From a virus (Duplodnaviria; Caudoviricetes), in the IMG/VR virus record IMGVR_UViG_3300008085_000050, positions 1 through 46,426 of that record: a stretch of 46,426 bases of DNA; one strand, written 5' to 3'. Under the pieces are notes generated by a model. The model was not told where the DNA came from and ran no database searches. It saw only the letters and a list, made by a program, of their open reading frames with translations. Position numbers and translations under genes: made by a program. The first letter of the stretch is position 1; each line of letters opens with the position of its first letter. Shown piece after piece: positions 1-31,935 of this stretch.

Positions 1-10
1 AAAGGTTAAG

Positions 11-216
11 ACTCACACCCGAAGGGTTGAGTTTTTGAAATATACAATTATCTGAAATTCAAATAATTACAATAATTTTAATGATAATTGAATTTTTGAG
101 CGGCGAGTGCGCAGCTTTAACCGGGAAAATTCTTGCTACCACGGCAATTTTTCCCTGATCTGCGCACTCGCCGGTGTTCTTTTCTCTTTCATTATTACGG
201 CGAAAGAGAAAAGAAC
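11..216. repeat. Cluster of three inverted repeats (hairpins)
   Basis: ACTCA-C-ACCC-GAA-GGGT-TGAGT (11-32). Perfect 14-bp IR CGGCGAGTGCGCAG 101-114 / 160-173, with an inner GGGAAAATT/AATTTTTCCC stem. Perfect 15-bp IR GTTCTTTTCTCTTTC 176-190 / 202-216. Confidence 0.85.
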
Positions 217-542
217 CAAAAGAGAAAGCCGCCAAAAATGTACTCCCTAAATCCCCTGCTGATCATGGATAATCAGAACAGAAAAGCGTTTGGATATTTT
301 TTTTGCGAAACTCCGGTTTTTAAACTTCCTCGCTCAGGCAGTACTCTAATCCCTCCGGCCGAGTCCTGATGCACTTCAACGGATGGACTTCGATTCATGG
401 TGAATTTTACAGCGCACTTTCAATGCTGTGCGGACATGCTGGATACTGAAACCCTTTCCGGAATTCTCCTTGTGGCCAGCTTTCAAAGTAATTTTTTTGA
501 CTTAATATCTGCTAAGGTGATAGCCCGTTTCATGGTGCGCGT

Positions 543-592
543 TGCCATACAAGGATTTTCCCGGCATAAAATTTATTCCAGTTCCTCCTTGC
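543..592 (+). repeat. Leader repeat A, copy 1
   Basis: TGCCATACAAGGATTTTCCCGGCATAAAATTTATTCCAGTTCCTCCTTGC, near-identical to 1719-1769. Internal stem CAAGGA/TCCTTG. Confidence 0.9.
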
Positions 593-650
593 TATGCCAT
601 GACCCGGGCCATCTGATACCTGCACATATTAACTTTTAAAAATTACTACA

Positions 651-929
651 ATGAAAACTTACAAGAAAAATTACATCGGAAAAGGAACTCAGGTTCCAAA
701 CATGACAATCGCAAAATGTACAGTGAAAGTATCGGAAATGATGAAATTCATCCACAAATACGAAGGTGAGGATTACATCACGTTTGAAGTTGCAAAAATG
801 AAGAACCTGGACAAATTCGGAAGGGGTTACACTGTGTACTGCACAACAATTGAGGAAACTGAAGAAGAAAAACCTGCACCTAAGAAACGCAAATCAAAGA
901 AAGCCGAAAACGCTGACATTCCGTTCTGA
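651..929 (+). CDS. Small protein with SSB-like acidic C-terminal tail (possible ssDNA-binding protein)
   Basis: 92 aa with a beta-rich core, a Lys/Glu-rich linker and a terminal ADIPF resembling the SSB-Ct motif DDIPF. Followed by a terminator. Confidence 0.6.
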   Translation: MKTYKKNYIGKGTQVPNMTIAKCTVKVSEMMKFIHKYEGEDYITFEVAKMKNLDKFGRGYTVYCTTIEETEEEKPAPKKRKSKKAENADIPF

Positions 930-938
930 AGAAATTTT

Positions 939-963
939 CCCTGCTTCGGCAGGGATTTTTTTT
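939..963 (+). terminator. Intrinsic terminator
   Basis: CCCTGC-TTCG-GCAGGG followed by a T-run, then GGTCGTA. Nearly identical to 1574-1598. Confidence 0.85.
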
Positions 964-972
964 GGTCGTACA

Positions 973-1177
973 TCTCAGAAAGACTCTCCACTCCATTTAA
1001 ATACCGGCAAATGTATTAATCGCCGCCCGGAACGGTCAAGGGTATACAAGCTCACTCAGTTGTTCTCTTTGTTGGTTCCGCCCTTGCCCTAATCCGCCCG
1101 TCTCAATGGTGGTACGCCAATATTTAACCGGCGTGCCTGATGCCATAATAAGTCTGTGTAGGCAGCAGCAAAACATT
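973..1177 (+). repeat. Leader repeat B, copy 1 (~200 bp structured element)
   Basis: Homologous to 2152-2353. A 50-bp block (1124-1173) is identical to 2300-2349. Internal stem CAAGGG 1037-1042 / CCCTTG 1081-1086. Confidence 0.9.
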
Positions 1178-1369
1178 ATGTCTGATTCAAATTACGGAAG
1201 ATTTCGCTGCATCCATTGCGGCTGTAGGTTTAACCTAAACGACGAAGAAAACGAAGCTTACGAAAACGGCTTCTTTATGATTGATCCTGATTGCTGTGAC
1301 GATTGTTTCGATAACCTGGAACACGCTCCGGATTATCCTGAATTCTCTGATGCCGACCCTGGACTTTAA
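1178..1369 (+). CDS. Small acidic Cys-rich (zinc-finger-like) protein
   Basis: ATG at 1178 directly after repeat B. 63 aa with CIHC and CCDDC motifs, very rich in Asp/Glu. Confidence 0.7.
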   Translation: MSDSNYGRFRCIHCGCRFNLNDEENEAYENGFFMIDPDCCDDCFDNLEHAPDYPEFSDADPGL

Positions 1370-1381
1370 TACCGATGTGCT

Positions 1382-1564
1382 ATGACTAAAGTAATCAAAA
1401 TCACAGAGCATTATCGCCCTGACAGTAAACGCTATGGTAGTTACCGGGTTGTACCAAAACTTACTTTATCCGGCGACTGGCTGTCCGATGCTGGTTTCAA
1501 ACCTTCCAAAATGGTTCAGGTCGAATGCGTAAACAACACGCTCATTGTAACCTCAATCGAGTAA
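1382..1564 (+). CDS. SymE-family (AbrB-fold) type I toxin-like protein
   Basis: PKLTLSGDWLSDAGFKPSKMVQVECVNNTLIV matches the SymE pattern PxLxLxGxWLxxAGFxxGxxVxV. Confidence 0.75.
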   Translation: MTKVIKITEHYRPDSKRYGSYRVVPKLTLSGDWLSDAGFKPSKMVQVECVNNTLIVTSIE

Positions 1565-1573
1565 TAAAGAATG

Positions 1574-1598
1574 CCCTGCTCCGGTAGGGTATTTTTTT
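1574..1598 (+). terminator. Intrinsic terminator
   Basis: CCCTGC-TCCG-GTAGGG followed by a T-run and GGTCGTA. Confidence 0.8.
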
Positions 1599-1718
1599 GG
1601 TCGTAACAATAATGGTGCAACCCAAAACCCGTTTTTCCTGCCGTTTTTTTCCAGTGCTTTCACCCTGTTTATTTTCAAATGAAGGTGCGAAGAAACAGCC
1701 TCAATTCATAATACGCCC

Positions 1719-1769
1719 TGCCATTCAAGGATTTTCCCGGCATAAAAATTTATTCCAGTTCCTCCTTGC
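1719..1769 (+). repeat. Leader repeat A, copy 2
   Basis: Near-identical to 543-592 (one substitution, one extra A). Confidence 0.9.
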
Positions 1770-1824
1770 CTGTTCTGACTTTCTGCTGTGATGGCAATGC
1801 ACATCATTTTAAAATAAAAACATT

Positions 1825-1989
1825 ATGAAATCAAAATCTTACAAAAACAGCAGTGAAGAAAAAAACAACCTTTGGGATGCATTCGTCGATTATCTCGAAA
1901 ACACCTACTTCCCGGGAGCCAGTGAATTACTCGATACAAAAACAATCGCTTTCGAGTATGAAAGTTTTACGGCATGTTATTCAAAATAA
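1825..1989 (+). CDS. Small hypothetical protein (54 aa, not in ORF track)
   Basis: Translated by hand: MKSKSYKNSSEEKNNLWDAFVDYLENTYFPGASELLDTKTIAFEYESFTACYSK. Lies between repeat A2 and a terminator. Confidence 0.7.
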   Translation: MKSKSYKNSSEEKNNLWDAFVDYLENTYFPGASELLDTKTIAFEYESFTACYSK

Positions 1990-2009
1990 GGGCTTCTGCC
2001 CTTTTTTTT
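1988..2009 (+). terminator. Intrinsic terminator
   Basis: AAGGGC-TTCT-GCCCTT followed by a T-run. Confidence 0.75.
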
Positions 2010-2151
2010 GTTCGGTTTGATATTTAAAAACTGATATTATTTTAACCGATATCACCCCCGGGAAGAGCAGCTTCTTCCGGGAAGTGGGTTTACATTCTTT
2101 AACTTCCTATCCATTCACGCATTCACGCATTATAGCATTCACGCATTAACC

Positions 2152-2353
2152 TCTCAGAAAGATCCTCACTCCACTTAATCCCGGCAAATTTATTAATCGC
2201 CCCACGGAACGCGCAAGGGTAATACAAGCTCTCCGCGCTGTTTTCTTTTGTGGCTTCGCCCTTGCACTAATCCGTGTGGCTCAATGTGGTATGCCGAAAT
2301 TAACCGGCGTGCCTGATGCCATAATAAGTCTGTGTAGGCAGCAGCAAAATAAT
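2152..2353 (+). repeat. Leader repeat B, copy 2
   Basis: Homologous to 973-1177. Stems GCAAGGG 2213-2219 / CCCTTGC 2259-2265 and CACGGA 2203-2208 / TCCGTG 2271-2276. Confidence 0.9.
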
Positions 2354-3265
2354 ATGGATAAATTCGATATCTACGAAATGGTTACTAAACTCATTACCGA
2401 CCGCCTCGAAGCTGGTGTGGTGCCGTGGCACATGCCATGGAAAACGGCAGGAGCAATGCCACGTAACCTGGTGTCAAAGAAAACTTACCGCGGCTTTAAC
2501 TTCTGGTACCTGCTCAGCATGGGTTTCGAACGCCAGTTTTTCCTCACTTTTAACCAGGTGCAGGAACTGGGCGCAACGGTCCGCAAGGGGTCAAAAGCAT
2601 TCCAGGTGGTTTTCTGGAAAATGGTGGAAAGCCACAACGACCCCACAAAGAAGGTTCCTTACCTGCGTTACTACCGTGTTTTCCATGTCGACGATGTGGA
2701 AGGAATCGACCCGAAGAAACTCCCATCGTACGACCAACACGATCAGGATTTCGACCCCATCTGTACCTGCGACAGGCTGGTTCAGGAATGGACCGACAGC
2801 CCAACAATTCAACAGAATGCCGAGTATGCCTGCTATGTACCATCCATCGACACGATAAAAATCCCGAATCCACGGAGGTTTTTCAAAGCTGAAGAATATT
2901 ATTCAGTTTTGTACCATGAGATGACCCACGCAACTGGCCACGCACGTAGGCTAAACCGCCACAGCAAGTTTCCAAATCATCACTTTGGCAGCAACGATTA
3001 CAGCCAGGAAGAACTGGTTGCCGAAATGGGAGCTGCTTACCTCTGCGGAATCTGCGGTATCGAAAACGCCACCATCGACAACTCAGCCGCCTACATACAA
3101 AGCTGGCTGAAGAAACTCAAAAACGATAAAAAGTTTGTACTCCAGGCTGCCAGTTATGCCCAGTTGGCTACCGACTATATCCTGGGAATTACTCCGCACG
3201 AAACTTCCGAAACAGTTGTGCAGTCCGACGAAAACAATCCTGTTGTTGAATCCTTTGAATTCTGA
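2354..3265 (+). CDS. ardC: ArdC-family antirestriction protein (ssDNA-binding N-domain plus zincin-like metallopeptidase domain)
   Basis: Motifs PWHMPW, YRGFN, FLTFNQ, VRKGSK, YYSVLYHEMTHATGH (HExxH) and YSQEELVAEMGAAYLC. Start moved to the ATG at 2354, after repeat B. Confidence 0.9.
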   Translation: MDKFDIYEMVTKLITDRLEAGVVPWHMPWKTAGAMPRNLVSKKTYRGFNFWYLLSMGFERQFFLTFNQVQELGATVRKGSKAFQVVFWKMVESHNDPTKKVPYLRYYRVFHVDDVEGIDPKKLPSYDQHDQDFDPICTCDRLVQEWTDSPTIQQNAEYACYVPSIDTIKIPNPRRFFKAEEYYSVLYHEMTHATGHARRLNRHSKFPNHHFGSNDYSQEELVAEMGAAYLCGICGIENATIDNSAAYIQSWLKKLKNDKKFVLQAASYAQLATDYILGITPHETSETVVQSDENNPVVESFEF

Positions 3266-3268
3266 GCC

Positions 3269-3985
3269 ATGAAACAACAGCGACAAACATTCGAACAGCA
3301 TATGGAACAGCTTGCACGCCGACATGGTGTGCATTCTATTTTCTCCGATTTCCTCACTTTGCTCATGTGTGCTTTCTCCCTGGGGCAACGCGAAGAGGAA
3401 TACCTGAAAACTATACGGAAGTACGAAAAACCGGAAGCGTACAAAATATCTGAAGCTTTGGCCGCACTAATTGTTGAGATGACCGGAGACGGAACCGGCA
3501 TGGTTGACGTGCTTGGCGATTACTTCGAACGGTTTTTGAGCTACGGCCGTAACGGGCAATTCTTCACCCCGCAACACCTCTGCGACATGATGGCCCGGCT
3601 GATGAACCCAATAACCCCACTCGAACGAATACTGGACCCTGCCTGCGGAAGCGGGCGAATGTTAATGGCAATGGCAAAGTTGAACCGCTTCGCAACCTTC
3701 TTTGGTGCCGATAACGACCGAAACTGTGCCATGATGTGCGCCATCAACATGTGCCTGAACTCGATGTATGGCGAAGTTGCCTGGATGAACTCAATCACCA
3801 ACCAGTTTTACGCAGCCTGGCAGATTCACCCAACCGCAAAAGGCTGCCCATGCATCACCCAGATTTCCGAAAAACAGAGCTACATACTCCTGAAACTTCC
3901 GGAAAGCAAACCAGATATAAAGGAAATCGTTACAGATATCCCTAAAATCGAAACACAGGCAAAACAACTGTTGTTTGAGTTTTAA
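3269..3985 (+). CDS. Short N-6 DNA methylase-family protein (HsdM-like SAM-binding region, no visible NPPF motif)
   Basis: GQFFTP and ILDPACGSGRML (motif I) are present. No (N/D)PP(F/Y) motif IV in the translation. Confidence 0.75.
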   Translation: MKQQRQTFEQHMEQLARRHGVHSIFSDFLTLLMCAFSLGQREEEYLKTIRKYEKPEAYKISEALAALIVEMTGDGTGMVDVLGDYFERFLSYGRNGQFFTPQHLCDMMARLMNPITPLERILDPACGSGRMLMAMAKLNRFATFFGADNDRNCAMMCAINMCLNSMYGEVAWMNSITNQFYAAWQIHPTAKGCPCITQISEKQSYILLKLPESKPDIKEIVTDIPKIETQAKQLLFEF

Positions 3986-4017
3986 AAAATGTAACCCCCA
4001 AACATTTTTTAAAATAA

Positions 4018-4061
4018 TGTAACAAATTCGTTACAACATATTAAAATTTTATTTATCTTTA
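4018..4061 (+). promoter_or_regulatory. Operator palindrome and probable promoter of the 4117-10455 operon
   Basis: TGTAAC-N6-GTTACA at 4018-4035, an extra TGTAAC half-site at 3990-3995, and TATCTTTA (-7-like) at 4054-4061. Confidence 0.6.
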
Positions 4062-4116
4062 CAACATTAAAATCATTTAAGCGCTGGCGGCAACAGCACA
4101 ATACGGCAACAAAAAA

Positions 4117-4779
4117 ATGACAACACAAGTAACAATCGAACAACTCGCCGAAAAACTCAACAGAACTGTATGGGTAAAAGGCGATCTCAAGCGCATCTAT
4201 TTAAACGACGCTGGCTGGAATACCAAAAAAATGAGCACCAAAACGTACATTTTCCAAAACGAAAATGGCGAATTCAAAGTATCATGCCGCATCGAGTGCC
4301 CATCGCAACCTTACCAGTGGATTCAAAGCCAGGAAGAGGAAGTAAAAGAAGGTATTTACAAAGATATCGAACATGCCTTGGCGCTGATGGAAATCTCCCT
4401 GGTTGAATTCAAAGTGCTCGAAGAAAAACCCGAAGTAATGGTTTATATCCGCAAAAACGACAACGAACCAAGCTGGTACACCGAAAGCATATTTTACGAC
4501 GAATTTGGCACTTACCCCGAAAACGTATTCCCCGAAATTCCGCGTATAGTTCCGGTTGCCGCCCCTGTTGATGCTCCGGTGGTTAACGCCATACCAGCCG
4601 AAAAACCTGCTGTTAAAAACACCGAAACACCTGAGTTTGGCATTGGCACAAGGGTAACCAACCCACGCTTTGGCCACGGTACAGTTACTGCCGAAGCTGC
4701 CGAAACCATCGAAATCAAATTCGACATCGACGGACCAAAACGCCTTTTAAAGAAATTCGCCAAAATCGAAAGGTTATGA
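4117..4779 (+). CDS. Hypothetical protein with C-terminal PcrA/UvrD Tudor-like domain
   Basis: C-terminus FGIGTRVTNPRFGHGTVTAEAAETIEIKFDIDGPKRLLKKFAKIERL follows a Pro/Ala linker. Confidence 0.65.
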   Translation: MTTQVTIEQLAEKLNRTVWVKGDLKRIYLNDAGWNTKKMSTKTYIFQNENGEFKVSCRIECPSQPYQWIQSQEEEVKEGIYKDIEHALALMEISLVEFKVLEEKPEVMVYIRKNDNEPSWYTESIFYDEFGTYPENVFPEIPRIVPVAAPVDAPVVNAIPAEKPAVKNTETPEFGIGTRVTNPRFGHGTVTAEAAETIEIKFDIDGPKRLLKKFAKIERL

Positions 4780-6149: not shown

Positions 6150-6533
6150 ATGATTGTAACGTCATTCACCGATTATGAAATAGTTAAGAAGATGCGGACT
6201 TGTTACCTGGTCCGTATCTTTTTCGATTCCAAGGCGCGTAAAACAGAATGCTTTTACATTTCCGAAAAACAACTAAATAAGTTGCGAAATGTAATGGGCA
6301 ATGTTTCAGAATCCCGTGTACGAAACACATATCCTCTTGCCGTTTTCGATGGCGACCGTTATGTTTGGTGTGGCATCGAGTATCCCGATTATTCCGATCG
6401 GGAATGGCTAATGAAAAACTTCAATGCTCAATACAAATCAGAGTTCATTATTGAAAATTCAAAAATTGAAGTACATGTCCCCGAAAAAGTACAACCCATA
6501 GAATCAGGACCCGATGCAGAACTTATTCGTTGA
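6150..6533 (+). CDS. Hypothetical protein
   Basis: Probable ATG at 6150, just after the previous stop. Overlaps the helicase start. Confidence 0.65.
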   Translation: MIVTSFTDYEIVKKMRTCYLVRIFFDSKARKTECFYISEKQLNKLRNVMGNVSESRVRNTYPLAVFDGDRYVWCGIEYPDYSDREWLMKNFNAQYKSEFIIENSKIEVHVPEKVQPIESGPDAELIR

Positions 6534-7710
6534 CCAGCTTAATGCCTTCGAAAAACTTCGCACCTTCAAAGTAGGCGCCTTGTTTATGGAACCCGGCACC
6601 GGCAAAACCCGCACCGCTTACGAATTGGTAAAAAGCGTGGAAAGTATCAATTATATTCTCTGGCTTACCCCGTTCCAAACCAAAGAAAACCTGCGCTCAG
6701 AAATCGACAAATGCGGTGGTTTTACCTGCGAACTCGATATTATAGGCATAGAAACCTTATCCAGTTCCGACCGAACATATCTTCAATTAACAAACAAGGT
6801 GCAGAAACACAACACCTTCATTGTTTGCGACGAAAGCCTGAAAATTAAAAACTGGGATGCCAAACGTACCAAACGAATTGTTCAGCTTGGCACTTATACC
6901 GAATATAAACTAATACTGAATGGTACACCTCTTAGCCGAAACGTACTCGATATGTGGGCACAACTCGAATTTCTTAGCCCCAAAATATTAGGGATGGGGT
7001 TAGCTGAATTCAAAAATACATTTGTGAAATATACCACCATCACCAAAAAAATTAATGGAATAAAAAATACGAAAGAAATAATCGATGGCTACGAAAACAT
7101 CGATTACCTCTATTCATTAATCAAACATTACGTCTATGAATGCGACCTGAAGCTCGACGTTTCAAAGCAATACCAGAGCCGTAATTATTCCATCGACGCC
7201 GATGTGGCCGAAGAGTACGCCCGGATTAAAGAATTCATGCTTAATCACGAATACCTCATGTTCCGGAACAACAATATTTTCATAGAATTAATGCAACAGC
7301 TTCAACACGCTTATTGCTGCACATCCAATAAATTCGAAGTCGTTGAAAACATCATGGAACATGAGCATGAAGATAAAACCATCATCTTTTGCAAGTTCAT
7401 CCGCAGCCGCGATGCCATTGCCAAAATGTTTCCTGATGTAAAAGTATTGACCTATGGGAAACATGCCTACGGACTTAATTTGCAAGATTACAACACCGTT
7501 ATATTTTTCGACAAAACAATGGATTACGCACTCCGCCTGCAAGCCGAACGCCGCGTATTCCGAAGCGGTCAAAAAAATAATTGCACTTATTACGATTTAA
7601 CCGGTAATGTCGGCCTCGAAGCCATGATTAACCGTAATATCAACAAAAAAGAAACCATGTTAAACTACTTCAAACGCGTATCGTTTGAAACATTTATAAA
7701 AGAGTTATGA
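6514..7710 (+). CDS. SNF2-like (SF2) helicase
   Basis: Walker A LFMEPGTGKT, DES (motif II), LNGTP (motif III), GLNLQ (motif V), QAERRVFRSGQ (motif VI). Confidence 0.85.
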   Translation: MQNLFVDQLNAFEKLRTFKVGALFMEPGTGKTRTAYELVKSVESINYILWLTPFQTKENLRSEIDKCGGFTCELDIIGIETLSSSDRTYLQLTNKVQKHNTFIVCDESLKIKNWDAKRTKRIVQLGTYTEYKLILNGTPLSRNVLDMWAQLEFLSPKILGMGLAEFKNTFVKYTTITKKINGIKNTKEIIDGYENIDYLYSLIKHYVYECDLKLDVSKQYQSRNYSIDADVAEEYARIKEFMLNHEYLMFRNNNIFIELMQQLQHAYCCTSNKFEVVENIMEHEHEDKTIIFCKFIRSRDAIAKMFPDVKVLTYGKHAYGLNLQDYNTVIFFDKTMDYALRLQAERRVFRSGQKNNCTYYDLTGNVGLEAMINRNINKKETMLNYFKRVSFETFIKEL

Positions 7711-7913
7711 AAGAGTTCAACAACGCAAAAGCCCGCGAAGGTGCAGAACTTGTTACCCGGAGCGGAAAACCTGTTAAAATTCTTCTGTTCGACAGAAATA
7801 GTAAAGATTTCCCAATTGTTGCAATAATAAACAATCGGGAAGTTATTCAGGTTACCGAAAACGGTAAGTATTTTAAAGATAAGGATAGCGATAAAGATTT
7901 AATGTTAAAATGA
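7707..7913 (+). CDS. Hypothetical protein
   Basis: 68-aa ORF coupled on both sides. Confidence 0.7.
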   Translation: MKEFNNAKAREGAELVTRSGKPVKILLFDRNSKDFPIVAIINNREVIQVTENGKYFKDKDSDKDLMLK

Positions 7914-9193
7914 ACGTCCACGAAGCCACATTAAAGCGAATCGAATTTCTGTTCAACGAATTTGAGCAGATCATAATCTCTTTCTCCGGGGGAAAAGACA
8001 GCGGTGTGATGCTTAACCTTGCTCTGAACTATGCCCGGGAAACCAACCAGTTGTACAAAGTTGGTGTTTACCATATAGACTACGAAGCACAATACCAGGC
8101 CACCACCGACTATGTTACCCGCACTTTCGAAACACTTCCGAGCGAAGTTGCCCGGTACTGGGTTTGTCTGCCAATAAAAGCACAGTGCGCAACAAGCATG
8201 TTTCAAAATTACTGGCAGCCATGGAAAAAAGACGAACAGGAAATCTGGTGCCGCCAGCTCCCGGCCAACTGTATCAACGAAGATAACTTCCCGTTTTCGT
8301 TCGATTACGAGGTTTCCGATTACGAATTCAACAGGCTGTTTGCAAAAGCGATATCGCTTAAGAAAAAAACGGTTTTCCTTATTGGTATCCGCACCCAGGA
8401 GAGCCTGCACCGGTACAAGGCAGTAAATAAATTCTCCGACAAAAACGAATACAAATCAAAGAATTATACATCGGTAATTACCGGCAATTGCATCAATGCT
8501 TATCCTATTTACGACTGGTTAGTTGATGATATCTGGATTGCCAATTACCGATTCTGTTTCGATTATAACCGCTTGTACGACCTCATGCATCGCGCCGGGT
8601 TACGCCCAAACCAAATGAGGGTTGCCAGTCCGTTTAACGATTGCGCCACCGAAAGCCTGAAACTATACAAAGTAATCGACCCCAACAACTGGGGAAAACT
8701 CATTGGTCGCGTTAACGGTGTTAACTTTGCCGGCCTTTACGGCGGAACCACTGCAATGGGCTGGAATAACATAAAAAAACCGGCACACTTTACCTGGAAG
8801 CAATACATGTATTTTCTGCTCGATACGCTGCCCGAAGAAACCCGCGAAAACTACCTCCGTAAACTAAAAGTTTCGTTCGCCTACTGGCTCGAAAAAGGCG
8901 GCGCCCTGCCCGATGATGTGGCTGCCGAACTCGATAAAGACCAAATTGAATTTGAAGATTTGGGCGAACCTGTTAATAAACGCAACTACACCACCGGTTA
9001 CCGGATAATCAAGTTCAAAGAATACCTCGACGAAATTGATATCCGCAACCCCAACCTGCTGCCAACCTACAAACGCATGTGCATTGCCATCATGAAAAAC
9101 GATACTGCCTGCAAAACGCTGGGTTTTGGCCTCACAAAATACGAACTCGAAAAACGCCACAACATCATGACTAAATATCAAAATTTATTATAA
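7910..9193 (+). CDS. PAPS-reductase-like / DUF3440 protein (IbrA/YbdN family)
   Basis: PP-loop SFSGGKDS, IGIRTQESLHR, YPIYDW, QMRVASPF, RVNGVNF and a C-terminal KRMCIAIMKND. Confidence 0.85.
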   Translation: MNVHEATLKRIEFLFNEFEQIIISFSGGKDSGVMLNLALNYARETNQLYKVGVYHIDYEAQYQATTDYVTRTFETLPSEVARYWVCLPIKAQCATSMFQNYWQPWKKDEQEIWCRQLPANCINEDNFPFSFDYEVSDYEFNRLFAKAISLKKKTVFLIGIRTQESLHRYKAVNKFSDKNEYKSKNYTSVITGNCINAYPIYDWLVDDIWIANYRFCFDYNRLYDLMHRAGLRPNQMRVASPFNDCATESLKLYKVIDPNNWGKLIGRVNGVNFAGLYGGTTAMGWNNIKKPAHFTWKQYMYFLLDTLPEETRENYLRKLKVSFAYWLEKGGALPDDVAAELDKDQIEFEDLGEPVNKRNYTTGYRIIKFKEYLDEIDIRNPNLLPTYKRMCIAIMKNDTACKTLGFGLTKYELEKRHNIMTKYQNLL

Positions 9194-9194
9194 A

Positions 9195-9647
9195 ATGGAA
9201 AAAGAATTAAAAATAATGACGGCAACTGTTACTATTCAACTGGTTACAGTTGATGGTAAAAGAATGACAAAAGCGGTATTTAACCAAATACAGGAAGAAA
9301 ATAGTTTTAACTCAAAATTTGAATTTTCTGGAGATAGTATTCTTGGTTATGTAGTGTCAAATTACAAATGGTTGCTTTGGATTAAGAATGGTGAATTGAG
9401 AAAAACATCTCTTGAGTTTTTCCAGAGAATTCAAGAAATAGATGTAAATATTTGTAGAGTTTATGAAGTTGAAGATATTTTTGATTATTTAAAAAAACAA
9501 AAAGACCATTTTAAATCAGAAAAAGGATATATGGTTGCAAAAAGATATTATCCGGCTTCTGAATTAAAAAAACTCATTTCATTCAAAAAAGTATCTAAAG
9601 AATTTCTTGATAAACTAATAGGTAATCAACTATATATTGCAATCTGA
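9195..9647 (+). CDS. Hypothetical protein (AT-rich, between the ibrA-like and ibrB-like genes)
   Basis: 150-aa ORF, visibly more AT-rich than its neighbours. Confidence 0.7.
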   Translation: MEKELKIMTATVTIQLVTVDGKRMTKAVFNQIQEENSFNSKFEFSGDSILGYVVSNYKWLLWIKNGELRKTSLEFFQRIQEIDVNICRVYEVEDIFDYLKKQKDHFKSEKGYMVAKRYYPASELKKLISFKKVSKEFLDKLIGNQLYIAI

Positions 9648-10150
9648 TGAAATCACCAGTTTACAACGTAAAAGCCATACCTGTTGAAAAAATAAGGGCC
9701 AACAGCTACAACCCAAATGCAGTTGCTCCTCCGGAGATGAAACTTTTGGAATTAAGCATCTGGGAAGATGGATATACCATGCCAATAGTTTGTTACTATC
9801 TTCCGGATGAAGATATTTACGAAATAGTCGATGGCTTTCACCGCTACTCGGTAATGAAACGCAACCGGAAGATTTACGAACGCGAAAAAGGCATGATGCC
9901 CGTAGTGGTCATCGAAAAAGACATCAGTAACCGCATGGCATCCACCATCCGCCACAACCGCGCCCGTGGCAGCCACGATATCGCCCTGATGACAAACATC
10001 GTTTCAGAACTCACCAAAGCAGGCATGGGAGATGCCTGGATAATGAAACACATTGGCATGGATGCCGACGAAATTCTACGCCTCAAACAACTATCAGGCT
10101 TAGCAGAACTATTTAAAAATAAAGAATTTTCAAAATCATCAGAATTATGA
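9647..10150 (+). CDS. ParB/Srx-like protein (IbrB/YbdM family)
   Basis: ANSYNPNAVAPPEM, IVDGFHRY, STIRHNRARGSH. Confidence 0.85.
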   Translation: MKSPVYNVKAIPVEKIRANSYNPNAVAPPEMKLLELSIWEDGYTMPIVCYYLPDEDIYEIVDGFHRYSVMKRNRKIYEREKGMMPVVVIEKDISNRMASTIRHNRARGSHDIALMTNIVSELTKAGMGDAWIMKHIGMDADEILRLKQLSGLAELFKNKEFSKSSEL

Positions 10151-10455
10151 ACGAAAACCAAAATCCGCACCCCGATACATGGAAAGCATTTGTGCTGTTT
10201 ATTCACGAAATTGCCCGGGCAAAAGGAATAACGTCAGAAACCATTGCCAAACGCACAGGGATGCACGCCAGCAGCATCCGGCGAATGTTTCAGCTAAGGT
10301 ATTGCCCGTCGCTCGAAATGTGGCTCAAAATCATCAAGGCCATTGAAATTAACATTCATTTCGAAGACCGCGAAAGCAAAACCGAATTAAACGTGTTGTT
10401 CGAAAAAGCCATGACAGAACTCGGACGTCGCCCCGATAAACTGCCCAATAATTAA
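10147..10455 (+). CDS. XRE-family helix-turn-helix regulator
   Basis: ARAKGITSETIAKRTGMHASSIRRMFQLRYCPSLE HTH pattern. Last gene of the operon. Confidence 0.75.
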   Translation: MNENQNPHPDTWKAFVLFIHEIARAKGITSETIAKRTGMHASSIRRMFQLRYCPSLEMWLKIIKAIEINIHFEDRESKTELNVLFEKAMTELGRRPDKLPNN

Positions 10456-10515: not shown

Positions 10516-10746
10516 CTTTTTCATTCATGCATTATAGCAACTGTGCCGATATTTGGCAAACATTCTATGCAAAAGTTAAATTTAATGGTGGCGATTGCGC
10601 CGATATCAATAATTGGTCCCTAATCGATTTACAATTCACAAACTAAACATTTAAATACTACAGTCAAGCTCCCTTTAGGGCGGGGGGTGCATTATAGCAT
10701 TATAGCATTTTAGCATTATAGCACTATAGCATTCCCACATTTTTTT

Positions 10747-16478: not shown

Positions 16479-16606
16479 TTAAAAATGAAAAATTATAAAT
16501 TAAAAATTGAAGAACTTTTCTTAGCTCCCTTCAGAGCTTGTCCCGATTTGTCGGGAGCGGGGGGTGCATTCACGCATTCACGCATTCACGCATTCACGCA
16601 TTACCT

Positions 16607-18610
16607 ATGTTAAGTTTCACCATAAATAATATCCCTTTGGCCCTCTCCACCGAAACATCGGTGCGCATTACATGGACCAACCCGGCCTGCTACTTCGACA
16701 GCATCCCTGGCGACGTGGGAATGGGAATCGACATACCCGTGAACGAAATTAACCGCATGTTACTGGGCAATCCCGAGCGCTTCGAGAAATACGGTAGTAG
16801 TACTTCGCGCGAAATCCCCGGCTTCGAAATACGTTACGGCGGTTACCTGTTACTGGCCGGCACACTCATAATTCAAAGCGCAAGCCCAACTGCTTACAGC
16901 GGGTGGCTGCGCTCCAACGTGGGTAACCTGGGCAAAGAGCACCGCGAAAAATACATCTACGAAATACCAGCCTTTGATGTGCCTGTATCATTCGTAAACA
17001 AAGCCGACTACGACCCCGACACCGACCACTACGGATGCCCCACTTATTTCAACCCGGATTTTTTTAAAGACAAAGGCCGTAAAATTAAAGTTCCAACGCA
17101 GGTGCCAAACCCTGAATATTCAGAAGGCAACGGAGAACCTGCCTTTATACCCGACGAGATTGAAACTGAAGCATTAACCGAAGCATTTCGAAAATCTTCC
17201 CTTTACCGGGTTAACCCAACTTATCCCGGGGGAGATGCTGGGCCAAGCGGTGATATTAAAACAGAAGTTTCAACATCTGTAATCAGCACACTCGAAACAA
17301 ACCTGAATGTATATGTGGTTTCGCCAATGCTTTTTCTAAATTTTGTAATAAAAACACTTCTGGCTGATGCTAAATTTTATATCGCTCAGGATGCCATTGC
17401 CGCCAGCGACGATTTAAAACGACTTGTAATTTGGAATAATTTCGACATTACAAATATTGATTATACAATCGACACGCAAAATACACCTATTTTTACACAA
17501 GATTGGGCAAATCCCGGGACAGTACAAAGCAGATCATGGGTGATTAATTATATCGTTCGACATTACAACGGTATGTTCAAATACCGCGACCTACTGCCAA
17601 AAATAAAGCTCAAAGATTTTTTGCTGGGCATTCAAAACCTGCTCAACTTGTGCTTCCATTTTTTGCCCGATGGAAAGGTGAACATCATCGACCGCGAAAC
17701 CATCATCACAAGCGCACCCATCGACATTAACAGCTACATGGTGAACGAGTGGGAAATTGCGGAGAAAAAAGATGTTACCCTGAAATTCAAATTCACGCAC
17801 GACAACGACGACACCTATTTTGCCGAACGCTGGGAAGATGTTGACGACCGCCGCCCCGATGAAAAAGAACCCGTGGCAACGTGGGACGACATTATGGCCA
17901 TTCAAAACCCCGAAATTGGCGAAATGCGTTATATTAAATCGGAAAATATCTACGCGCAATATACCTGGCTGCAACAAAAGGAACAGGACGTTACAAGCGG
18001 TAATGAAATAATGACAGACGCGCTTGGATGGGAACATATTGCTTCGGGTTTTCAAAACGGTTTTTTCAATTCAAATAAAAACGAGGTGGAAGAAATTGAA
18101 ACCGTGTTTAGTACCATTACCGGAGATCAAACCGTAATGAGTTATCATGCAGGAAACATACAAAGTATGAAACTGGCCTACCAGAATTTTACCCCCCGCC
18201 TGTTTTTTTATAATGGTTGGAATACAGCGAAATTCCAAACCGACACGCTCGCATTGGATTGGGAAAAAGAAAACATCGGGCTTATTGCAAAACGCTGGCC
18301 ACGTTGGGCCCGGTTCTGGTGCCAGCGCCTGCCAGTTACGGGCGAAGCCGCCTTGCCGCTCAACATGCTCGATTACGTGGTGCGCAACATCACCAACAAA
18401 TTCAGGATGCGCTCCGGCGAGTTCATCATTGAAACCCTCGAAACAGAGTTCAGCCTAAACAGCATCGGAACAACAAAAATTACAGGCTACAAAAGCGACT
18501 ACGTGCCTAACTCTTACGACATAACACAGCACTGGTCGCCCGATAACCTGATTATGATGGATGAAATAATTGATTTTACAGAATTTGATAACTGGAATTT
18601 TAAGTTATGA
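16607..18610 (+). CDS. Putative tail tip / hub structural protein
   Basis: Probable ATG at 16607 (the upstream extension translates octamer repeats). 667 aa, in the tail module. Confidence 0.65.
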   Translation: MLSFTINNIPLALSTETSVRITWTNPACYFDSIPGDVGMGIDIPVNEINRMLLGNPERFEKYGSSTSREIPGFEIRYGGYLLLAGTLIIQSASPTAYSGWLRSNVGNLGKEHREKYIYEIPAFDVPVSFVNKADYDPDTDHYGCPTYFNPDFFKDKGRKIKVPTQVPNPEYSEGNGEPAFIPDEIETEALTEAFRKSSLYRVNPTYPGGDAGPSGDIKTEVSTSVISTLETNLNVYVVSPMLFLNFVIKTLLADAKFYIAQDAIAASDDLKRLVIWNNFDITNIDYTIDTQNTPIFTQDWANPGTVQSRSWVINYIVRHYNGMFKYRDLLPKIKLKDFLLGIQNLLNLCFHFLPDGKVNIIDRETIITSAPIDINSYMVNEWEIAEKKDVTLKFKFTHDNDDTYFAERWEDVDDRRPDEKEPVATWDDIMAIQNPEIGEMRYIKSENIYAQYTWLQQKEQDVTSGNEIMTDALGWEHIASGFQNGFFNSNKNEVEEIETVFSTITGDQTVMSYHAGNIQSMKLAYQNFTPRLFFYNGWNTAKFQTDTLALDWEKENIGLIAKRWPRWARFWCQRLPVTGEAALPLNMLDYVVRNITNKFRMRSGEFIIETLETEFSLNSIGTTKITGYKSDYVPNSYDITQHWSPDNLIMMDEIIDFTEFDNWNFKL

Positions 18611-24783: not shown

Positions 24784-25338
24784 ATGGCAACACAAAAATT
24801 CCTTTTTAAAAATACAGCAGGCGCCTGGGTGTTTGGCAATACAGTTAACAGCATTTGCCCTGCCGGAACTTACCGCCTCGATGCGGCCCCCGGAGGCACT
24901 GTTTCGGTAAGGCATATCTATAACAGAGACATAGCCGACCAATTTGGAACCACGCATTCCGATTTTAAAAAGGCCGATGGCAACGCTTATGCATCGCTGG
25001 CCGAATTTATTGCTGCTACGCTCGACTTTTTTGTCGAACCCGCAAGCATGGGCGGCCCCGGCAGCCAGGCAATGAGTGCCGGAAGGCTTGGCACACATGG
25101 CGAAATCACCAGCCTTGCCGAAGCTTTTTCGCTGGGCTCAGGTAAATACTTCTCGGTATGTGTTGTGCCAAAAGTTGCAAGCACCGAAAGCATACTTGTG
25201 GCTGAAATTAAATTATACTTCGACACCGAAGCATCTAATTTCCCGCTGCCAATCAACGACTGGACACCGGGAATCATCTCCGAAATACCCGCTACCGCAA
25301 TCGATACAACCAACTACTATATTTTCTGGGCTTATTAA
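24784..25338 (+). CDS. Hypothetical structural protein
   Basis: 184-aa ORF after the late promoter motif, directly upstream of the DGR target. Confidence 0.7.
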   Translation: MATQKFLFKNTAGAWVFGNTVNSICPAGTYRLDAAPGGTVSVRHIYNRDIADQFGTTHSDFKKADGNAYASLAEFIAATLDFFVEPASMGGPGSQAMSAGRLGTHGEITSLAEAFSLGSGKYFSVCVVPKVASTESILVAEIKLYFDTEASNFPLPINDWTPGIISEIPATAIDTTNYYIFWAY

Positions 25339-25348
25339 ACTGGTTATT

Positions 25349-26941
25349 ATGGCACTATTAATTGGCATTCGTTCCCGTAAATCGGGCGTAAATTTTTCAG
25401 AAGCTACACACGCCTATGGTGTGCAGTGGGATGTGTTAAACAGCAACCCTGCAGTTACCCGCATAGGCGCACTCGCGTTGCACACCACACTGCCGGTGCA
25501 TAACCAGGTTAAAACATGCCTCCTGCTCGACAACGGCACAGTTAATTACTACCTCAAACCCGATGACTGGACAAAAAAAGCCGATGGCAGTGCCAGTGAC
25601 CTTACCGGTACCGACGGGCAAATTATGGTTGAAATACCCGCTTTTTACTGGAAGTTTGAAACCGACAGCAACATCCGCCAGGTTATGGTTTCGAAATACC
25701 CGCTAACCGGTTATACTCAAGTGCCCAAAATGTATGTGAGCGCTTACGAGGCCGCGCTCCAACGCAGCAACCTTAAACTGGCAAGCGTAAAAAATACAAC
25801 AGCCGATTTTCGTGGCGGCAGCAACAATACCGCATGGGACGCTGCTTACAATACACAGCTTGGCCGCCCGGCTACAAGCATCAGCCGCACAAATTACAGA
25901 ACTTACGCCCGCAACCGCGGCGCCGGCTGGCAAATGTACACCTACCAGGCACACACCGCGCTGTGGTGGCTGTTTGTAACTGAATATGCAACGCTCAACA
26001 GCCAGGCAAACGTTGAATATGCGCTTACTGCCGAAGGTTATAAACAAGGCGGCCTTGGAGCAGGGGTTTCTGCGCTCGACAGCACCAGATGGAGCCACCT
26101 TACCGCTTATAACCCCGTTATTCCATGCGGCGCTTCCGATAGCATTGGCAATGGTTCAGGCGATGTTTCGTTCACTATGCCTTTCGAGTATAACGCAATA
26201 CCGGCAACATTCGTAAATCTGTATAGTGCTGCCACTGCCTACACTGTTGGCCAGTACACTTCGTACAACAACGCATTGTACAAGTGCATACTAAACTCAA
26301 CGGGTAATTTGCCAACAAATACCACCTATTTTACAGCAGTTTCGTTATTTCTGGGCGAATACAATGCTGCCACAACCTACCAGCCCGACGATTTTGTTTC
26401 TGTGGGCGCAAACTTGTATAAGTGCATACTCGAATCAACCGGCAATGCCGTTGACAATACAACATACTGGACCGCCATAACGCGCACCACCACCCTGGTG
26501 AACCGCTACCGTGGTGTTGAAATGCCGTTTAGCCATATATGGAAAAATGTTGATGGTATTAACATTAATATACAAGCCGACAGTGCCGGGGCCGAATCGC
26601 AGGTGTGGGTAGCCGATAATCCTGCAGACTGGAACGACAGCAATTATACAAACTATGAAAACCGCGGACTAATCAACAGGGGCAATGGTTATGTATCAGC
26701 CATTCTTTTTGGTGCAAAAGGTGACTGGTTGCCAACTTCAGTAACCGGTGGCAGCGCTACCTTATATTATTGCGATTACTTTTACACCTCGATTCCTGCC
26801 TCCGGAGAGAACCTTCGCACACTGCTCGTGGGCGGCCATGCGAGTAATGGGGCTTATGACGGTTTCGTTCATGCGCATTCGATTAATGCTCCTTCGCTTA
26901 CGTATGCGCATCTCGGGTCGCGCCTTTGCTTTTTACCGTAA
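25349..26941 (+). CDS. DGR target protein: putative receptor-binding protein with C-type-lectin-like C-terminus and two CBM5/12-like inserts
   Basis: ATG at 25349. Motifs GQIMVEIPAFYWK, YVSAYEA, EYATLNSQ, YRGVEMPFSHIW and the terminus LLVGG...LGSRLCF. The 3' end is the VR. Confidence 0.85.
   Translation: MALLIGIRSRKSGVNFSEATHAYGVQWDVLNSNPAVTRIGALALHTTLPVHNQVKTCLLLDNGTVNYYLKPDDWTKKADGSASDLTGTDGQIMVEIPAFYWKFETDSNIRQVMVSKYPLTGYTQVPKMYVSAYEAALQRSNLKLASVKNTTADFRGGSNNTAWDAAYNTQLGRPATSISRTNYRTYARNRGAGWQMYTYQAHTALWWLFVTEYATLNSQANVEYALTAEGYKQGGLGAGVSALDSTRWSHLTAYNPVIPCGASDSIGNGSGDVSFTMPFEYNAIPATFVNLYSAATAYTVGQYTSYNNALYKCILNSTGNLPTNTTYFTAVSLFLGEYNAATTYQPDDFVSVGANLYKCILESTGNAVDNTTYWTAITRTTTLVNRYRGVEMPFSHIWKNVDGININIQADSAGAESQVWVADNPADWNDSNYTNYENRGLINRGNGYVSAILFGAKGDWLPTSVTGGSATLYYCDYFYTSIPASGENLRTLLVGGHASNGAYDGFVHAHSINAPSLTYAHLGSRLCFLP
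26822..26935 (+). repeat. DGR variable repeat (VR), including IMH
   Basis: Aligns without gaps to 27064-27177 (offset 242). 14 of 15 mismatches lie at TR adenines. Confidence 0.95.
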
Positions 26942-26977
26942 CCGGAATACGATAGGCGAAGCGCGAAGCACGGAACT

Positions 26978-27020
26978 CCGACCCGAATTATGAGGGTCGG
27001 GCGAAGCCCCGATTTTTTTT
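26978..27020 (+). terminator. Hairpins downstream of VR (DGR target-recognition hairpin and/or terminator)
   Basis: CCGACCC-N9-GGGTCGG (26978-27000) overlaps GGGC-GAA-GCCC, which is followed by a T-run. Confidence 0.65.
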
Positions 27021-27063
27021 ATATTTTTGAGTTCTTTAAAATAATGGTTGTTTACCTGTGACC

Positions 27064-27177
27064 CTGCTCGTGGGCGGCAATGCGAATAATGGGGCTAATG
27101 ACGGTTTCGTTAATGCGAATACGAATAATGCTCCTTCGAATACGAATGCGAATATCGGGTCGCGCCAATGTTTTTTA
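27064..27177 (+). ncRNA. DGR template repeat (TR); the DGR RNA probably extends into the 27178-27290 spacer
   Basis: Intergenic copy of VR with 11 in-frame AAT codons at the positions that vary in VR. Confidence 0.93.
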
Positions 27178-27371
27178 ATACACAGGTAAAGGCCTTGCCT
27201 CTTGGCAAAAAATAAATACGTAAAAAAGGAGTGCTGGTAACCCGGTTCACATCGGGCGAAGGCTCTCCTGAAACAAAGCAAAACAAGCACCATACTTCAG
27301 TATGGTGATTTAAACGACAAAACAACCCGCCCCGTGGTAAATAGCTGCGGAGCACAAAACAAATTAAAAAA

Positions 27372-27806
27372 ATGAATGGCAATTGCAACTACCAACCACC
27401 TGCAACTGTACCGTATTCAAACACGGGCGGCGGCCAGGTAAATTTCATGGTTTCGCGAAACGACAAGGAAGACGCTGACGGCAAAATACAGGAAAACTGG
27501 GATTACCAGGTTGCCGAAGTAAGCGACTTTAAACGCGAAACCATTATTGCTGCTATTATTCGCGAAAAATATAGCCAGCACGCCGTTGAAGCAATTATTA
27601 ACAATCACCTTACCGGAGAAGATGCCGGCGAGTTCGCACAGCTCCAGAACTGGCGAAACCTTGCCAAAGCCGTGGCCGATGGGTTGTACATGAAAACCGA
27701 CCTTCAGGAAACTTTATCTGCAGAAATAATCGACCGCTTAACCAAAATAGACGAAACACTGCAGGCCGTAGCCGAAACATTAATCGAGAAAGGAATAACA
27801 CCATGA
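27372..27806 (+). CDS. Hypothetical protein between TR and RT
   Basis: 144-aa ORF with a helical C-half (IIAAIIREKYSQHAVEAIINN...QNWRNLAKAVA). Confidence 0.75.
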   Translation: MNGNCNYQPPATVPYSNTGGGQVNFMVSRNDKEDADGKIQENWDYQVAEVSDFKRETIIAAIIREKYSQHAVEAIINNHLTGEDAGEFAQLQNWRNLAKAVADGLYMKTDLQETLSAEIIDRLTKIDETLQAVAETLIEKGITP

Positions 27807-27964: not shown

Positions 27965-27993
27965 ATAATATTTATTATTTTCACCGGCCAAAA

Positions 27994-30573: not shown

Positions 30574-31935
30574 ATGGCAAACTTAGTTTTTAACAACAAC
30601 GGCGTTCCGCTGGTAGGCTTTGGCACCCGCAGCGGCATGTACATGAGTACCCCGGGCGCACCCGATGCAAAACCTAAAAAGGTGGCCGAACCTACCGACA
30701 ACGACCCCGATAAAACACTGGCCGGAAATATCGAAATTGTCGACTGGGGCGCCGGTAACCGCTTCCCAACCGATGCCGACGCTATCATTAACTCGGTTTC
30801 AGTACTCAATTCCGGACTAAAATTTATCCGTAATTTTACGCTGGGGCAGGGCATTTTTCCGGTTACCGTTGAAGGGTACGACGACGACGGCAATGAAGTG
30901 CTGAAACCCATACAGGAAACGAAAATTCAAAACTTCGCCAAAAGCCGCCTGGTGCGCCGATACCTCGAAAAGGCAACCCGCGATTACCTGAAGTTTGGCC
31001 CCGCCTTTGTACAGTTGCTGCCAAACACCGATGGAAGCCAGATTGTGGGCATCAACACCATCAACGCCAAATACTGCCGCCTGAGCCGCGCAAACGCCAG
31101 TGGTATTATCGAAAAATGCATTGTTTCGGGCAAATGGCCCGATACGCCCGGCGATGGCGAATTTACAACCATCGACGCGCTCGACGAGTACGATCCGCAG
31201 GCCGACCTCATGCGCCGTAAAATGGGCAAACAGGTAAAAGGCCGTACATTTGTGCAGGTAATCCGCGATTCGTGGAGCAACAACGAATACTACAGCTCGC
31301 CAATATGGTACACCGCTTACACCGCCGGGTGGGTCGATGTGGCTAAAAAAATACCCGCTTTTCTGAAAGCAGCTTACCAGAACCAGATTACCTGGAAATG
31401 GCACGTTCAGATTCCTTACGCTTTCTGGGATAAAAAATACCCCGAGGCACAGTTTAAAACCACCACTGAACGCGAAGCTGCCATTTCAGGTTTTATGGAC
31501 GAAATTGAGACCAACCTCTGCGATACCACCAACGCCAACAAACCTATTTTTACTTTTTTCGAAATCAACGGCCAGGGCAGGGCAGAGGAACAGTGGATTA
31601 TTAAACCACTCGAAAACAAACTCAACAGCGAACAGGATCTGATTAGTTCTGCCGCCGCCAACTCCGAAATTTTGTTTTCGCTAATGATTAACCCAAATGT
31701 TTTGGGCGCAGGTATGCCAGGCGGAACCTACGCAGGCAACCAGGGCGGCAGCAACATCCGCGAGGCTTTCCTGGTGAACATTGCCAACGCATGGCTCGAC
31801 CGCCAGAACCTGCTCGACCCCCTTGAAACTTACACCCGCTTTAATGGCGCGCCCGATAATATGGAATGGCGTTTCCGGAATACCATTCTTACTACTTTAG
31901 ATACAGGATCAGGAACCAAAAAAACTTTATCATAA
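30574..31935 (+). CDS. Putative portal protein
   Basis: ~453 aa. WGAGNRFP near the N-terminus, YYSSPIW, and NPNVLG...GGSNIREAF near the C-terminus. Size and pattern fit Bacteroidetes phage portal-like proteins. Confidence 0.65.
   Translation: MANLVFNNNGVPLVGFGTRSGMYMSTPGAPDAKPKKVAEPTDNDPDKTLAGNIEIVDWGAGNRFPTDADAIINSVSVLNSGLKFIRNFTLGQGIFPVTVEGYDDDGNEVLKPIQETKIQNFAKSRLVRRYLEKATRDYLKFGPAFVQLLPNTDGSQIVGINTINAKYCRLSRANASGIIEKCIVSGKWPDTPGDGEFTTIDALDEYDPQADLMRRKMGKQVKGRTFVQVIRDSWSNNEYYSSPIWYTAYTAGWVDVAKKIPAFLKAAYQNQITWKWHVQIPYAFWDKKYPEAQFKTTTEREAAISGFMDEIETNLCDTTNANKPIFTFFEINGQGRAEEQWIIKPLENKLNSEQDLISSAAANSEILFSLMINPNVLGAGMPGGTYAGNQGGSNIREAFLVNIANAWLDRQNLLDPLETYTRFNGAPDNMEWRFRNTILTTLDTGSGTKKTLS

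Follow-up and report, generated by a model that had tools for sequence, protein, structure and literature searches.

Why would a tailed phage carry an array of hairpin leaders and anti-defence genes that resembles the leading region of a conjugative plasmid? The question is raised by positions 543 to 3985 of IMG/VR virus record IMGVR_UViG_3300008085_000050, of which a stretch of 46,426 nucleotides (nt), called the window here, was analysed at its full length. By gene content (tape measure, portal, integrase, amidase and primase), the source contig is a temperate tailed phage; the record is linear and 87% complete, and family searches recognised no terminase and no capsid gene among the genes of the window. 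An earlier note, made from the sequence alone, had described four cassettes with leaders of two alternating families, A and B, and had proposed either that the phage has a single-stranded DNA (ssDNA) or mobilisable phase, or that it captured an expression array whose repeats serve as promoters and as recombination points. Here, we show that a widespread lineage of temperate Bacteroidales phages carries the array as a variable island between the large terminase gene (terL) and the portal gene, and we propose that it works like an Frpo anti-defence island and not like a conjugative leading region.

The cassettes, leaders, repeat block, stems and flanks all lie where the earlier note had placed them, and its gene order agrees with the features listed below. 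The flank common to two of the terminators, a T-run followed by GGTCGTA, occurs at 956 and 1592 and at no other place in the window. Leaders A1 (543-592) and A2 (1719-1769) have a common core, and leaders B1 (973-1177) and B2 (2152-2353) can be aligned along their whole length, the longest identical block being 50 nt (1124-1173 and 2300-2349). The stem CAAGG(A/G)...(T/C)CCTTG, which had been attributed to all four leaders, is indeed present in each of them (CAAGG(A/G) at 550, 1037, 1726 and 2214; (T/C)CCTTG at 586, 1081, 1763 and 2259), but its register differs between the families, since it lies 21 nt from the promoter-like box in B and mostly 26-34 nt from it in A. The features of the window (aa, amino acids; ORF, open reading frame) are as follows.

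1, no strand: start of the contig; the putative cos motif lies outside the window, and the virion end would be about 95-115 nt further left
504..630 (core 543-592), minus strand: leader A1, predicted template-strand hairpin whose -7-like box (512-519) is degenerate, differing from TAnnTTTG at two positions
651..929, plus strand: ORF1, 92 aa, beta-rich, ending in an acidic tip (ADIPF) at the C-terminus; serves as marker gene for the island
936..968, plus strand: terminator-like hairpin with T-run and GGTCGTA flank, from sequence
973..1177, minus strand: leader B1, predicted ssDNA promoter; -7 box 1008-1015, -33 TTG 1037-1039, 3' arm from 1081, 50-nt block 1124-1173
1178..1369, plus strand: Cys-rich/acidic-type ORF, 63 aa, without family match
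1382..1564, plus strand: SymE-like protein, 60 aa, PF08845
1569..1606, plus strand: terminator-like hairpin with T-run and GGTCGTA flank, from sequence
1675..1805 (core 1719-1769), minus strand: leader A2, weak predicted fold with a degenerate box
1825..1989, plus strand: ORF of cluster 'orf4', 54 aa; the cluster occurs at 19 loci
1986..2012, plus strand: terminator-like hairpin, from sequence
2152..2353, minus strand: leader B2, predicted ssDNA promoter; -7 box 2185-2192, -33 TTG 2214-2216, 3' arm from 2259, 50-nt block 2300-2349
2354..3265, plus strand: ArdC anti-restriction protein, PF08401 and PF18818, HExxH intact
3269..3985, plus strand: HsdM-like protein, PF02384, with a SAM (S-adenosylmethionine)-binding motif and without an NPPY-type catalytic motif
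1124..2299, plus strand: segment missing from a strain variant (contig of run X9), bounded by the 50-nt B1/B2 block
30574..31935, plus strand: portal; nearest named phage match Polaribacter phage Leef_1, 28%

Inverted repeats are also found upstream of A1, at 101-173 and 180-215, and are partly conserved in relatives. REP-like 8-nt repeats at 2112-2148, 10682-10742 and 16559-16619 occur in unrelated contigs of the same runs as well.

Are the leaders promoters, and on which strand do they fold? For family B, anchoring on the 3' arm gave 77 copies, 69 of them with a 5' arm that holds the box at no more than one mismatch, and the alignment comprises 59 copies, near-duplicates and two mis-anchored copies being left out. 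The earlier note had taken the leaders for Frpo-type stem-loops and had named a lack of covariation as evidence to the contrary; covariation is instead present in B, where 12/23 pairs are changed on both sides (62 cells) and 0/500 shuffles scored as high. The arms pair at 88.7%, compared to 32-48% in slid controls, and own arms score higher than swapped arms for both the outer stem (16.5 versus 12.2) and the inner stem (7.8 versus 2.5). The fold belongs to the template (minus) strand by two measures: wobble-type cells in the stems are A.C on the plus strand (G.T on the minus strand) in 37 instances compared to 10 with G.T on the plus strand, and the energy is lower on the minus strand in 47/59 copies. 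The same strand matches the Bacteroidota promoter consensus of a -7 TAnnTTTG and a -33 element, as given in passages of PMC6847099. An exact TAnnTTTG is found on the minus strand, in the far arm, in 49/59 copies, the spacer from the box to TTG or TTT is 20-22 nt in 57/59, and the -33 element is TTG in 33/59. The first T of the box takes part in a pair, unlike the positions that follow it, which is fork-junction-like; the outer stem closes a bubble, opposite which the box sits, and the stems are imperfect, with loops of 14-147 nt. A reverse box was found in 95/267 regions upstream of cargo compared to 7/99 control regions, and a forward box in 7/267 compared to 14/99. Positions 1-4300 of the window contain just two boxes, both reverse, in B1 and B2, and no forward box. 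Since the copies are related, these leader counts are not independent trials. Taken together, these results indicate that the leader B family has the geometry of Frpo, a predicted hairpin on the template strand with the -7 box on its far arm, and that the B leaders are very probably ssDNA promoters.

Because single copies fold weakly, the claim of structure rests on the family alignment and not on single-sequence energies: as DNA, A1 alone has a z below -3, and the values for A2, B1 and B2 fall in the range from +1.1 to -1.5. The fold of A1 reaches -27.2 kcal/mol on the minus strand (z -4.85) and -20.0 on the plus strand (z -3.17). In the A family set of 103 copies, the energy is lower on the minus strand in 102, and own arms score 19.2 compared to 14.9 for swapped arms. 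A C.A pair on the plus strand (G.T on the minus strand) is kept in the core of 93/97 scored copies, and one neighbouring pair is compensated. The box of family A is mostly a TAnnTTAG-like variant without a fixed -33 element, and it has two mismatches in both window copies. Judged from the alignment, leader A is a template-strand structure; it is likely a promoter too, with a weaker case than that of B. An Rfam search with the leaders returned three matches, all far below the gathering score, by which a known RNA family was ruled out, and blastn found no leader homologues in PLSDB or among the cultured phages of INPHARED.

How widespread is the array? With exact leader patterns, the same array was found in three other viral contigs, each time right behind the large terminase gene. 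An array-bearing prophage is present in the cultured Draconibacterium aestuarii (L091). Searching with an ORF1 profile led to 80 loci in genomes (the best 80 of 130) and to 32 in viral records; phage markers are present in the fetched flank of 26 of these 80 genome loci and of 30/32 viral loci, three genome loci are satellite-like, and 51 have neither phage nor satellite markers, 28 of which are shorter than 10 kb. The neighbour clusters among the listed ORF1 loci include a RadC-like JAB protein (60), portal (39), terL (34), ArdC (31) and a methyltransferase (MTase)-like gene (20). Between terL and portal, the order and content of the cargo change from locus to locus; the comparison across related phages that the earlier note had suggested shows variable genes behind the same leaders. 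The terL and portal proteins show distant kinship to those of Duneviridae, Helgolandviridae and Porphyromonas phages, and leaders and intact cargo persist among phages that share about 20-40% identity in terL. In one locus (L002), a KilA-N gene is inserted between cassettes. The proposal that the repeats are recombination points is supported by one strain variant that lacks exactly the B1-B2 segment: in a contig of 20,951 nt from run X9, 1123 is followed directly by 2300 across the 50-nt block, and the read depth in that run is 0-1 at 1201-2000 compared to 10.8 in the flanks, the evidence for this deletion coming from that one run.

Three observations concern the surroundings of the island. 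In the window, tail and lysis genes (10871-31935) separate the array from the portal, whereas in most relatives the portal comes directly after the array. The window's SNF2-helicase block (6514-10455) also comes after the array in L092 and L112. In L040, L056, L061, L086 and other islands, defence systems are found among the cassettes (EcoRII with a C5 methylase, type I restriction-modification, AbiEii and HigB).

What is the site that the array adjoins? A two-block motif lies behind terL in 26 loci. G088, a relative of the window phage, is a linear, 100% complete, array-bearing record with terL and the array at opposite ends. Both of its termini fall in the motif, and 8 nt of the uncut junction in its near-twin L118 are missing. 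Because end repair removes 3' overhangs, leaving such a gap (passages of PMC5557969), the 8-nt gap in G088 is read as a 3' cos, in a test made on this one record. The cultured relative Leef_1 was typed 'Cos 3' by PhageTerm, with a pile-up of read starts at the termini (passages of PMC8776804), and its record stops 83 nt past terL, at the site that ranks first for the motif in its genome. An nhmmer search with the motif had no match in cultured phages, the two-block matrix failed to place the end of Ingeline, and the published passages searched gave no termini information for laban6-1 and Porphyromonas phages. The motif is very probably cos, and its 3' type is inferred from one metagenomic record and one cultured relative. 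The position of the virion end left of the window was estimated from the offsets of window 117-650 against L093 and L094, both of which hold terL, motif and array. A contig from run X5 extends 5.8 kb leftward beyond window position 1, and a metagenome-contig search for a left extension of the window returned solely the window's own record (L157).

All detected A and B leaders at motif loci (105/105 at 46 loci) lie downstream of the motif and are co-oriented; the count is 109 at 48 loci minus two motif hits inside relaxase genes of integrative and conjugative elements (ICEs; L179 and L180), and a few duplicate loci remain in it. The first leader is 335-1114 nt from the motif at 29/43 loci and 319 nt from the end in G088. 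In laban6-1, the motif and the cargo (SymE, ArdC-N and N6_Mtase) are inverted together. The motif is also present, together with a leader array, in four satellite-like elements (L014, L034, L044 and L084) that carry an integrase or excisionase and VapE/primase-type genes; it is doubled in L034 (7275 and 7637) and L084 (3947 and 4241) and single in L044 (7963). These motif-bearing elements are possibly an undescribed group of Bacteroidota satellites.

Other records with the motif or its neighbours deserve mention. In the uncultured gut phage record L158 (395-1565), the motif is followed by an Frpo-like leader of other sequence, a 186-aa ORF and RadC. Mea-Yong924-1 (L160) was deposited with a Microcystis host; its terL, portal, motif and leader are of the Bacteroidota type, and the host label may be doubtful. 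Immediately ahead of the terminase genes stands a PLD (phospholipase D)-family nuclease-like gene (L161, 4293-4886; cluster c8, found at 28 loci), which may assist cos cutting.

Is the array then the leading region of a phage that moves by conjugation? Relaxases PF03432, PF01076 and PF03389 and P2 gpA were found in 0/5 phage records (three of them at least 90% complete), other relaxase families were covered by a general Pfam scan of 58 window ORFs, likewise with no match, and no relaxase or transfer gene was found among 90 neighbour-cluster representatives. The complete genome G001, in which all four arrays adjoin phage genes, has no relaxase and no coupling protein. The lack of a relaxase in the five phage records, and the genes pointing away from the adjoining conserved site, speak against the mobilisable phase that had been proposed. 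The suggested kinship with arrays of conjugative elements did hold, since the same leaders are found near relaxases in ICEs. In an 81-genome sample, 20 places were fetched, 12 with full leaders and 8 without; five of the 12 lie less than 65 kb from a relaxase, two have phage genes, one has the motif only and four are unassigned. The ICE leaders less than 65 kb from a relaxase are all on the relaxase strand (9/9, seven confirmed full), and eight are downstream of the relaxase. In conjugative elements, ssDNA promoters follow a transferred-strand rule (passages of PMC11541004), which the ICE leaders fit, and this suggests that ICEs are the source or an exchange partner.

Could the array be a set of ICE modules captured at the first-injected end, where they form an ordinary early region whose leaders are read as duplex by another sigma factor, act as RNA, or are passive and refilled? 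The same leaders do occur in the ICEs of the 81-genome sample, similar cargo is found at the same end of laban6-1, where there is a forward box but no hairpin is obvious, and the window codes for a LuxR/sigma-like protein (38033). The wobble bias and the energies, however, favour the minus strand and not the RNA strand, the forward box is missing and terminators stand between cassettes, leaders and intact cargo are maintained across phages with terL about 20-40% identical, and the four phage arrays of G001 come without relaxase or coupling protein. We consider this explanation possible, if unlikely.

The second way to link the array to conjugation is that an excised prophage hitch-hikes, the motif or a nearby site being an oriT on which an ICE relaxase acts in trans, with the minus strand as T-strand. 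An inverted repeat lies just after the motif, two satellites have the motif after a primase gene, where NBU-type elements carry oriT, and the ICE leaders obey the T-strand rule. In addition, the cos-like matrix scores 31 (L180, 1837) and 19 (L179, 17891) within the coding sequence of two ICE relaxases. These two hits were not accepted as real sites and were treated as chance, as they coincide with His-Ile-Ser codons; a packaging mimic is the alternative. Against hitch-hiking, the complete record G088 ends within the motif with a gap, the motif was absent where it was looked for, both ahead of the mob genes of ICEs and in an NBU-like element that bears a relaxase, and it is present in phages without the array. 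Furthermore, the array would enter last. This explanation is improbable.

How could a cos phage expose a single strand at this end? The proposal that we prefer, and to which we give about an even chance, is that host 5'-to-3' resection of the incoming end fires the array through its ssDNA promoters. The minus strand is the template of every cassette and, by the inferred geometry, has its 3' terminus at the array end; if the plus strand were resected from its 5' end, the minus strand would be freed, and the leaders would fold. Host RNA polymerase would then read the folded leaders, transcribing the cargo for as long as the gap stays open. Because a 3' overhang would survive 5'-to-3' resection, the two ends could anneal even so and form a gapped circle that is repaired later. 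The responsible nuclease may be a host AddAB-like enzyme, which is a guess. If so, and here too the chances seem evenly balanced, this phage and satellite lineage would use its cohesive end as a damage sensor, a counterpart of the plasmid leading region without conjugation.

A number of observations weigh against this proposal or the evidence that leads to it. For the leaders, the B copies were chosen with a pattern containing the box and the loci were found via ORF1, so that the counts are biased and not independent; the -33 TTG is replaced by TTT in 26/59 B copies; for family A, an exact box is found upstream of 0/85 copies of ORF1; and the window's A2 barely folds (DNA z +0.2 on the minus strand and +1.1 on the plus strand). 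For the site, the Leef_1 motif score of 6.1 is inside the shuffled range, and gene clustering found no such array in Leef_1. For their arrangement, the first detected leader is 1.6-7 kb from the motif at 14/43 loci, where other leader families escape detection; by eye, Mea-Yong924-1 has an Frpo-like leader and RadC upstream of the motif, and L119 has leaders upstream of terL; and laban6-1 apparently uses an ordinary forward box. For the resection itself, the lambda-exo/RecE-type exonuclease families YqaJ and DUF3799 were found in 0/5 phage records, AddB-like open frames in five hosts all scored below the cut-off, and cos phages normally circularise fast, so that resection over kilobases may be rare. 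Finally, the leaders may be refilled from ICEs and not kept by selection in the phages.

The two exceptions with upstream leaders would be accounted for if replication, packaging or supercoil-driven extrusion in the circular phage makes the minus strand single-stranded along its whole length, because all leaders keep the orientation of the motif; the leaders would then be promoters or priming sites, and Frpo also primes replication, according to the title of a 1997 paper cited in PMC11541004. This leaves the clustering within about 1 kb of the end unexplained, no P2-type initiator was found in the five phage records, and imperfect stems with such loops would be unlikely to extrude from duplex DNA. 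We therefore regard it as distinctly unlikely. A further explanation is that the phage DNA enters the cytoplasm as one strand, 3' end first, via a host uptake channel, and that the leaders give early transcripts and primers. Strand, polarity and position are all compatible with such entry, and the cargo has ssDNA-associated families (ArdC, and the RadC-like JAB protein in 60 listed loci). One strand, however, would not be able to rebuild both cohesive ends, so that circularisation would fail, and leaderless relatives have the same terminase and portal families; this explanation is highly improbable.

What would resection-fired leaders express? ORF1 (651-929) has 159 homologues and an AlphaFold2 model with a pLDDT (predicted local distance difference test) of 82. 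It has no Pfam, PHROG or NCBIfam match, and its atlas clusters are unnamed viral clusters. Its structure has no Foldseek match at E<=0.001; the best VIA match has Z 3.2 with a root-mean-square deviation of 6.2 over 58 aligned residues, a weak match that does not exclude a shared fold. The name SSB (single-stranded DNA-binding protein), which the earlier note had listed among the typical cargo of leading regions, found no backing for this ORF, as neither family nor structure searches gave an SSB or OB (oligonucleotide/oligosaccharide-binding)-fold match, and only the acidic tip is left. The 63-aa ORF (1178-1369) has no Pfam, PHROG or NCBIfam match either. The next gene (1382-1564) matches PF08845 (SymE_toxin) with an E value of 4.9e-9, above the cut-off and far below the cut-off of the full-length SymE equivalog. 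The name ArdC for 2354-3265 is correct: the protein has ArdcN and MPTase-PolyVal domains as well as HExxH, and matches the solved ArdC (PDB 6sna) with an E value of 6e-45. In the product of the ORF at 3269, residues 77-166 match EcoR124II M over the SAM-binding part of HsdM. It had been called a methylase; however, no [ND]PP[FYW] motif was found in any of the 20 members of this N6_Mtase-like cluster, in which the SAM motif is present. Without the NPPY-type catalytic motif, the product is probably not an ordinary methylase, and one guess is that it acts as a decoy.

Elsewhere in the window, 6514-10455 contains SNF2 helicase, PAPS (3'-phosphoadenosine-5'-phosphosulfate)-reductase/DUF3440, ParB-like and helix-turn-helix genes, with weak similarity to DndC. 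A module resembling a diversity-generating retroelement spans 25076-29253 and comprises a tail protein (25076-26941), two copies of a 117-nt repeat (26819 and 27061) and a reverse transcriptase (27994-29253).

How does the island compare to known systems? As in the Frpo/ssi leading-region islands described in passages of PMC11541004, a long template-strand hairpin is repeated before co-oriented anti-restriction, MTase-like and toxin-like genes. In contrast, the leaders have Bacteroidota -7/-33 elements in place of -10/-35 and no Rfam or PLSDB match, and the array lies beside the cos end of a tailed phage without a detected relaxase, its genes facing away from the site. The terms 'bacteroid' and 'prophage' are absent from the main text of PMC11541004, and a search of the literature, in which subscription journals and bioRxiv supplements were barely covered, brought up no paper on ssDNA promoters located at the ends of phages or on an Frpo of Bacteroidota. 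The CTn-type ICEs of Prolixibacteraceae (L152/L153, L146/L148, L179 and L180) share the B leader family and cargo (ArdC, MTase-like, RadC, c3 and DUF6573); unlike the phage arrays, they have a relaxase, a coupling protein and TraG, the motif is absent at their mob region, and in 8/9 their leaders are downstream of the relaxase and so outside the first kilobases transferred. Helgolandviridae (Leef_1), Duneviridae (6H, Ingeline and laban6-1) and Nixviridae-type phages have homologous terL and portal proteins (20-44% protein identity) and the terL-motif-portal layout, and laban6-1 has SymE, ArdC-N and N6_Mtase at the position equivalent to the array. Unlike the window, the cultured phages have no A or B leaders; Mea-Yong924-1 and L158 have other Frpo-like leaders. 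P4 and PICIs (phage-inducible chromosomal islands) are satellites that hijack cos. Like them, the four satellite-like elements carry the motif of a helper; unlike them, they have a leader array behind the motif. The T5 pre-early region and the N4 hairpin promoters are first-entering phage systems too. T7 ocr and early anti-CRISPRs are likewise anti-defence genes at a genome end that are expressed at once (mentioned in passages of PMC11541004). These systems, however, rely on duplex promoters of host RNA polymerase or, for N4, on short hairpins read by a virion polymerase, whereas the window leaders are predicted to mimic a host promoter only when single-stranded.

These results define a Bacteroidota-type Frpo family with -7/-33 elements that is common to ICEs, phages and satellites. 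The genes behind its leaders give a mining rule for anti-defence proteins, with ORF1, orf4, c3, c10, DUF6573 and the catalytically incomplete HsdM-like protein as candidates. ssDNA promoters are a known feature of conjugative elements, the DNA of which enters single-stranded, and conserved, strand-matched promoters of this predicted kind at a cos end suggest that the genome end of these phages passes through a single-stranded phase during infection, which is outside the usual picture of cos phages.

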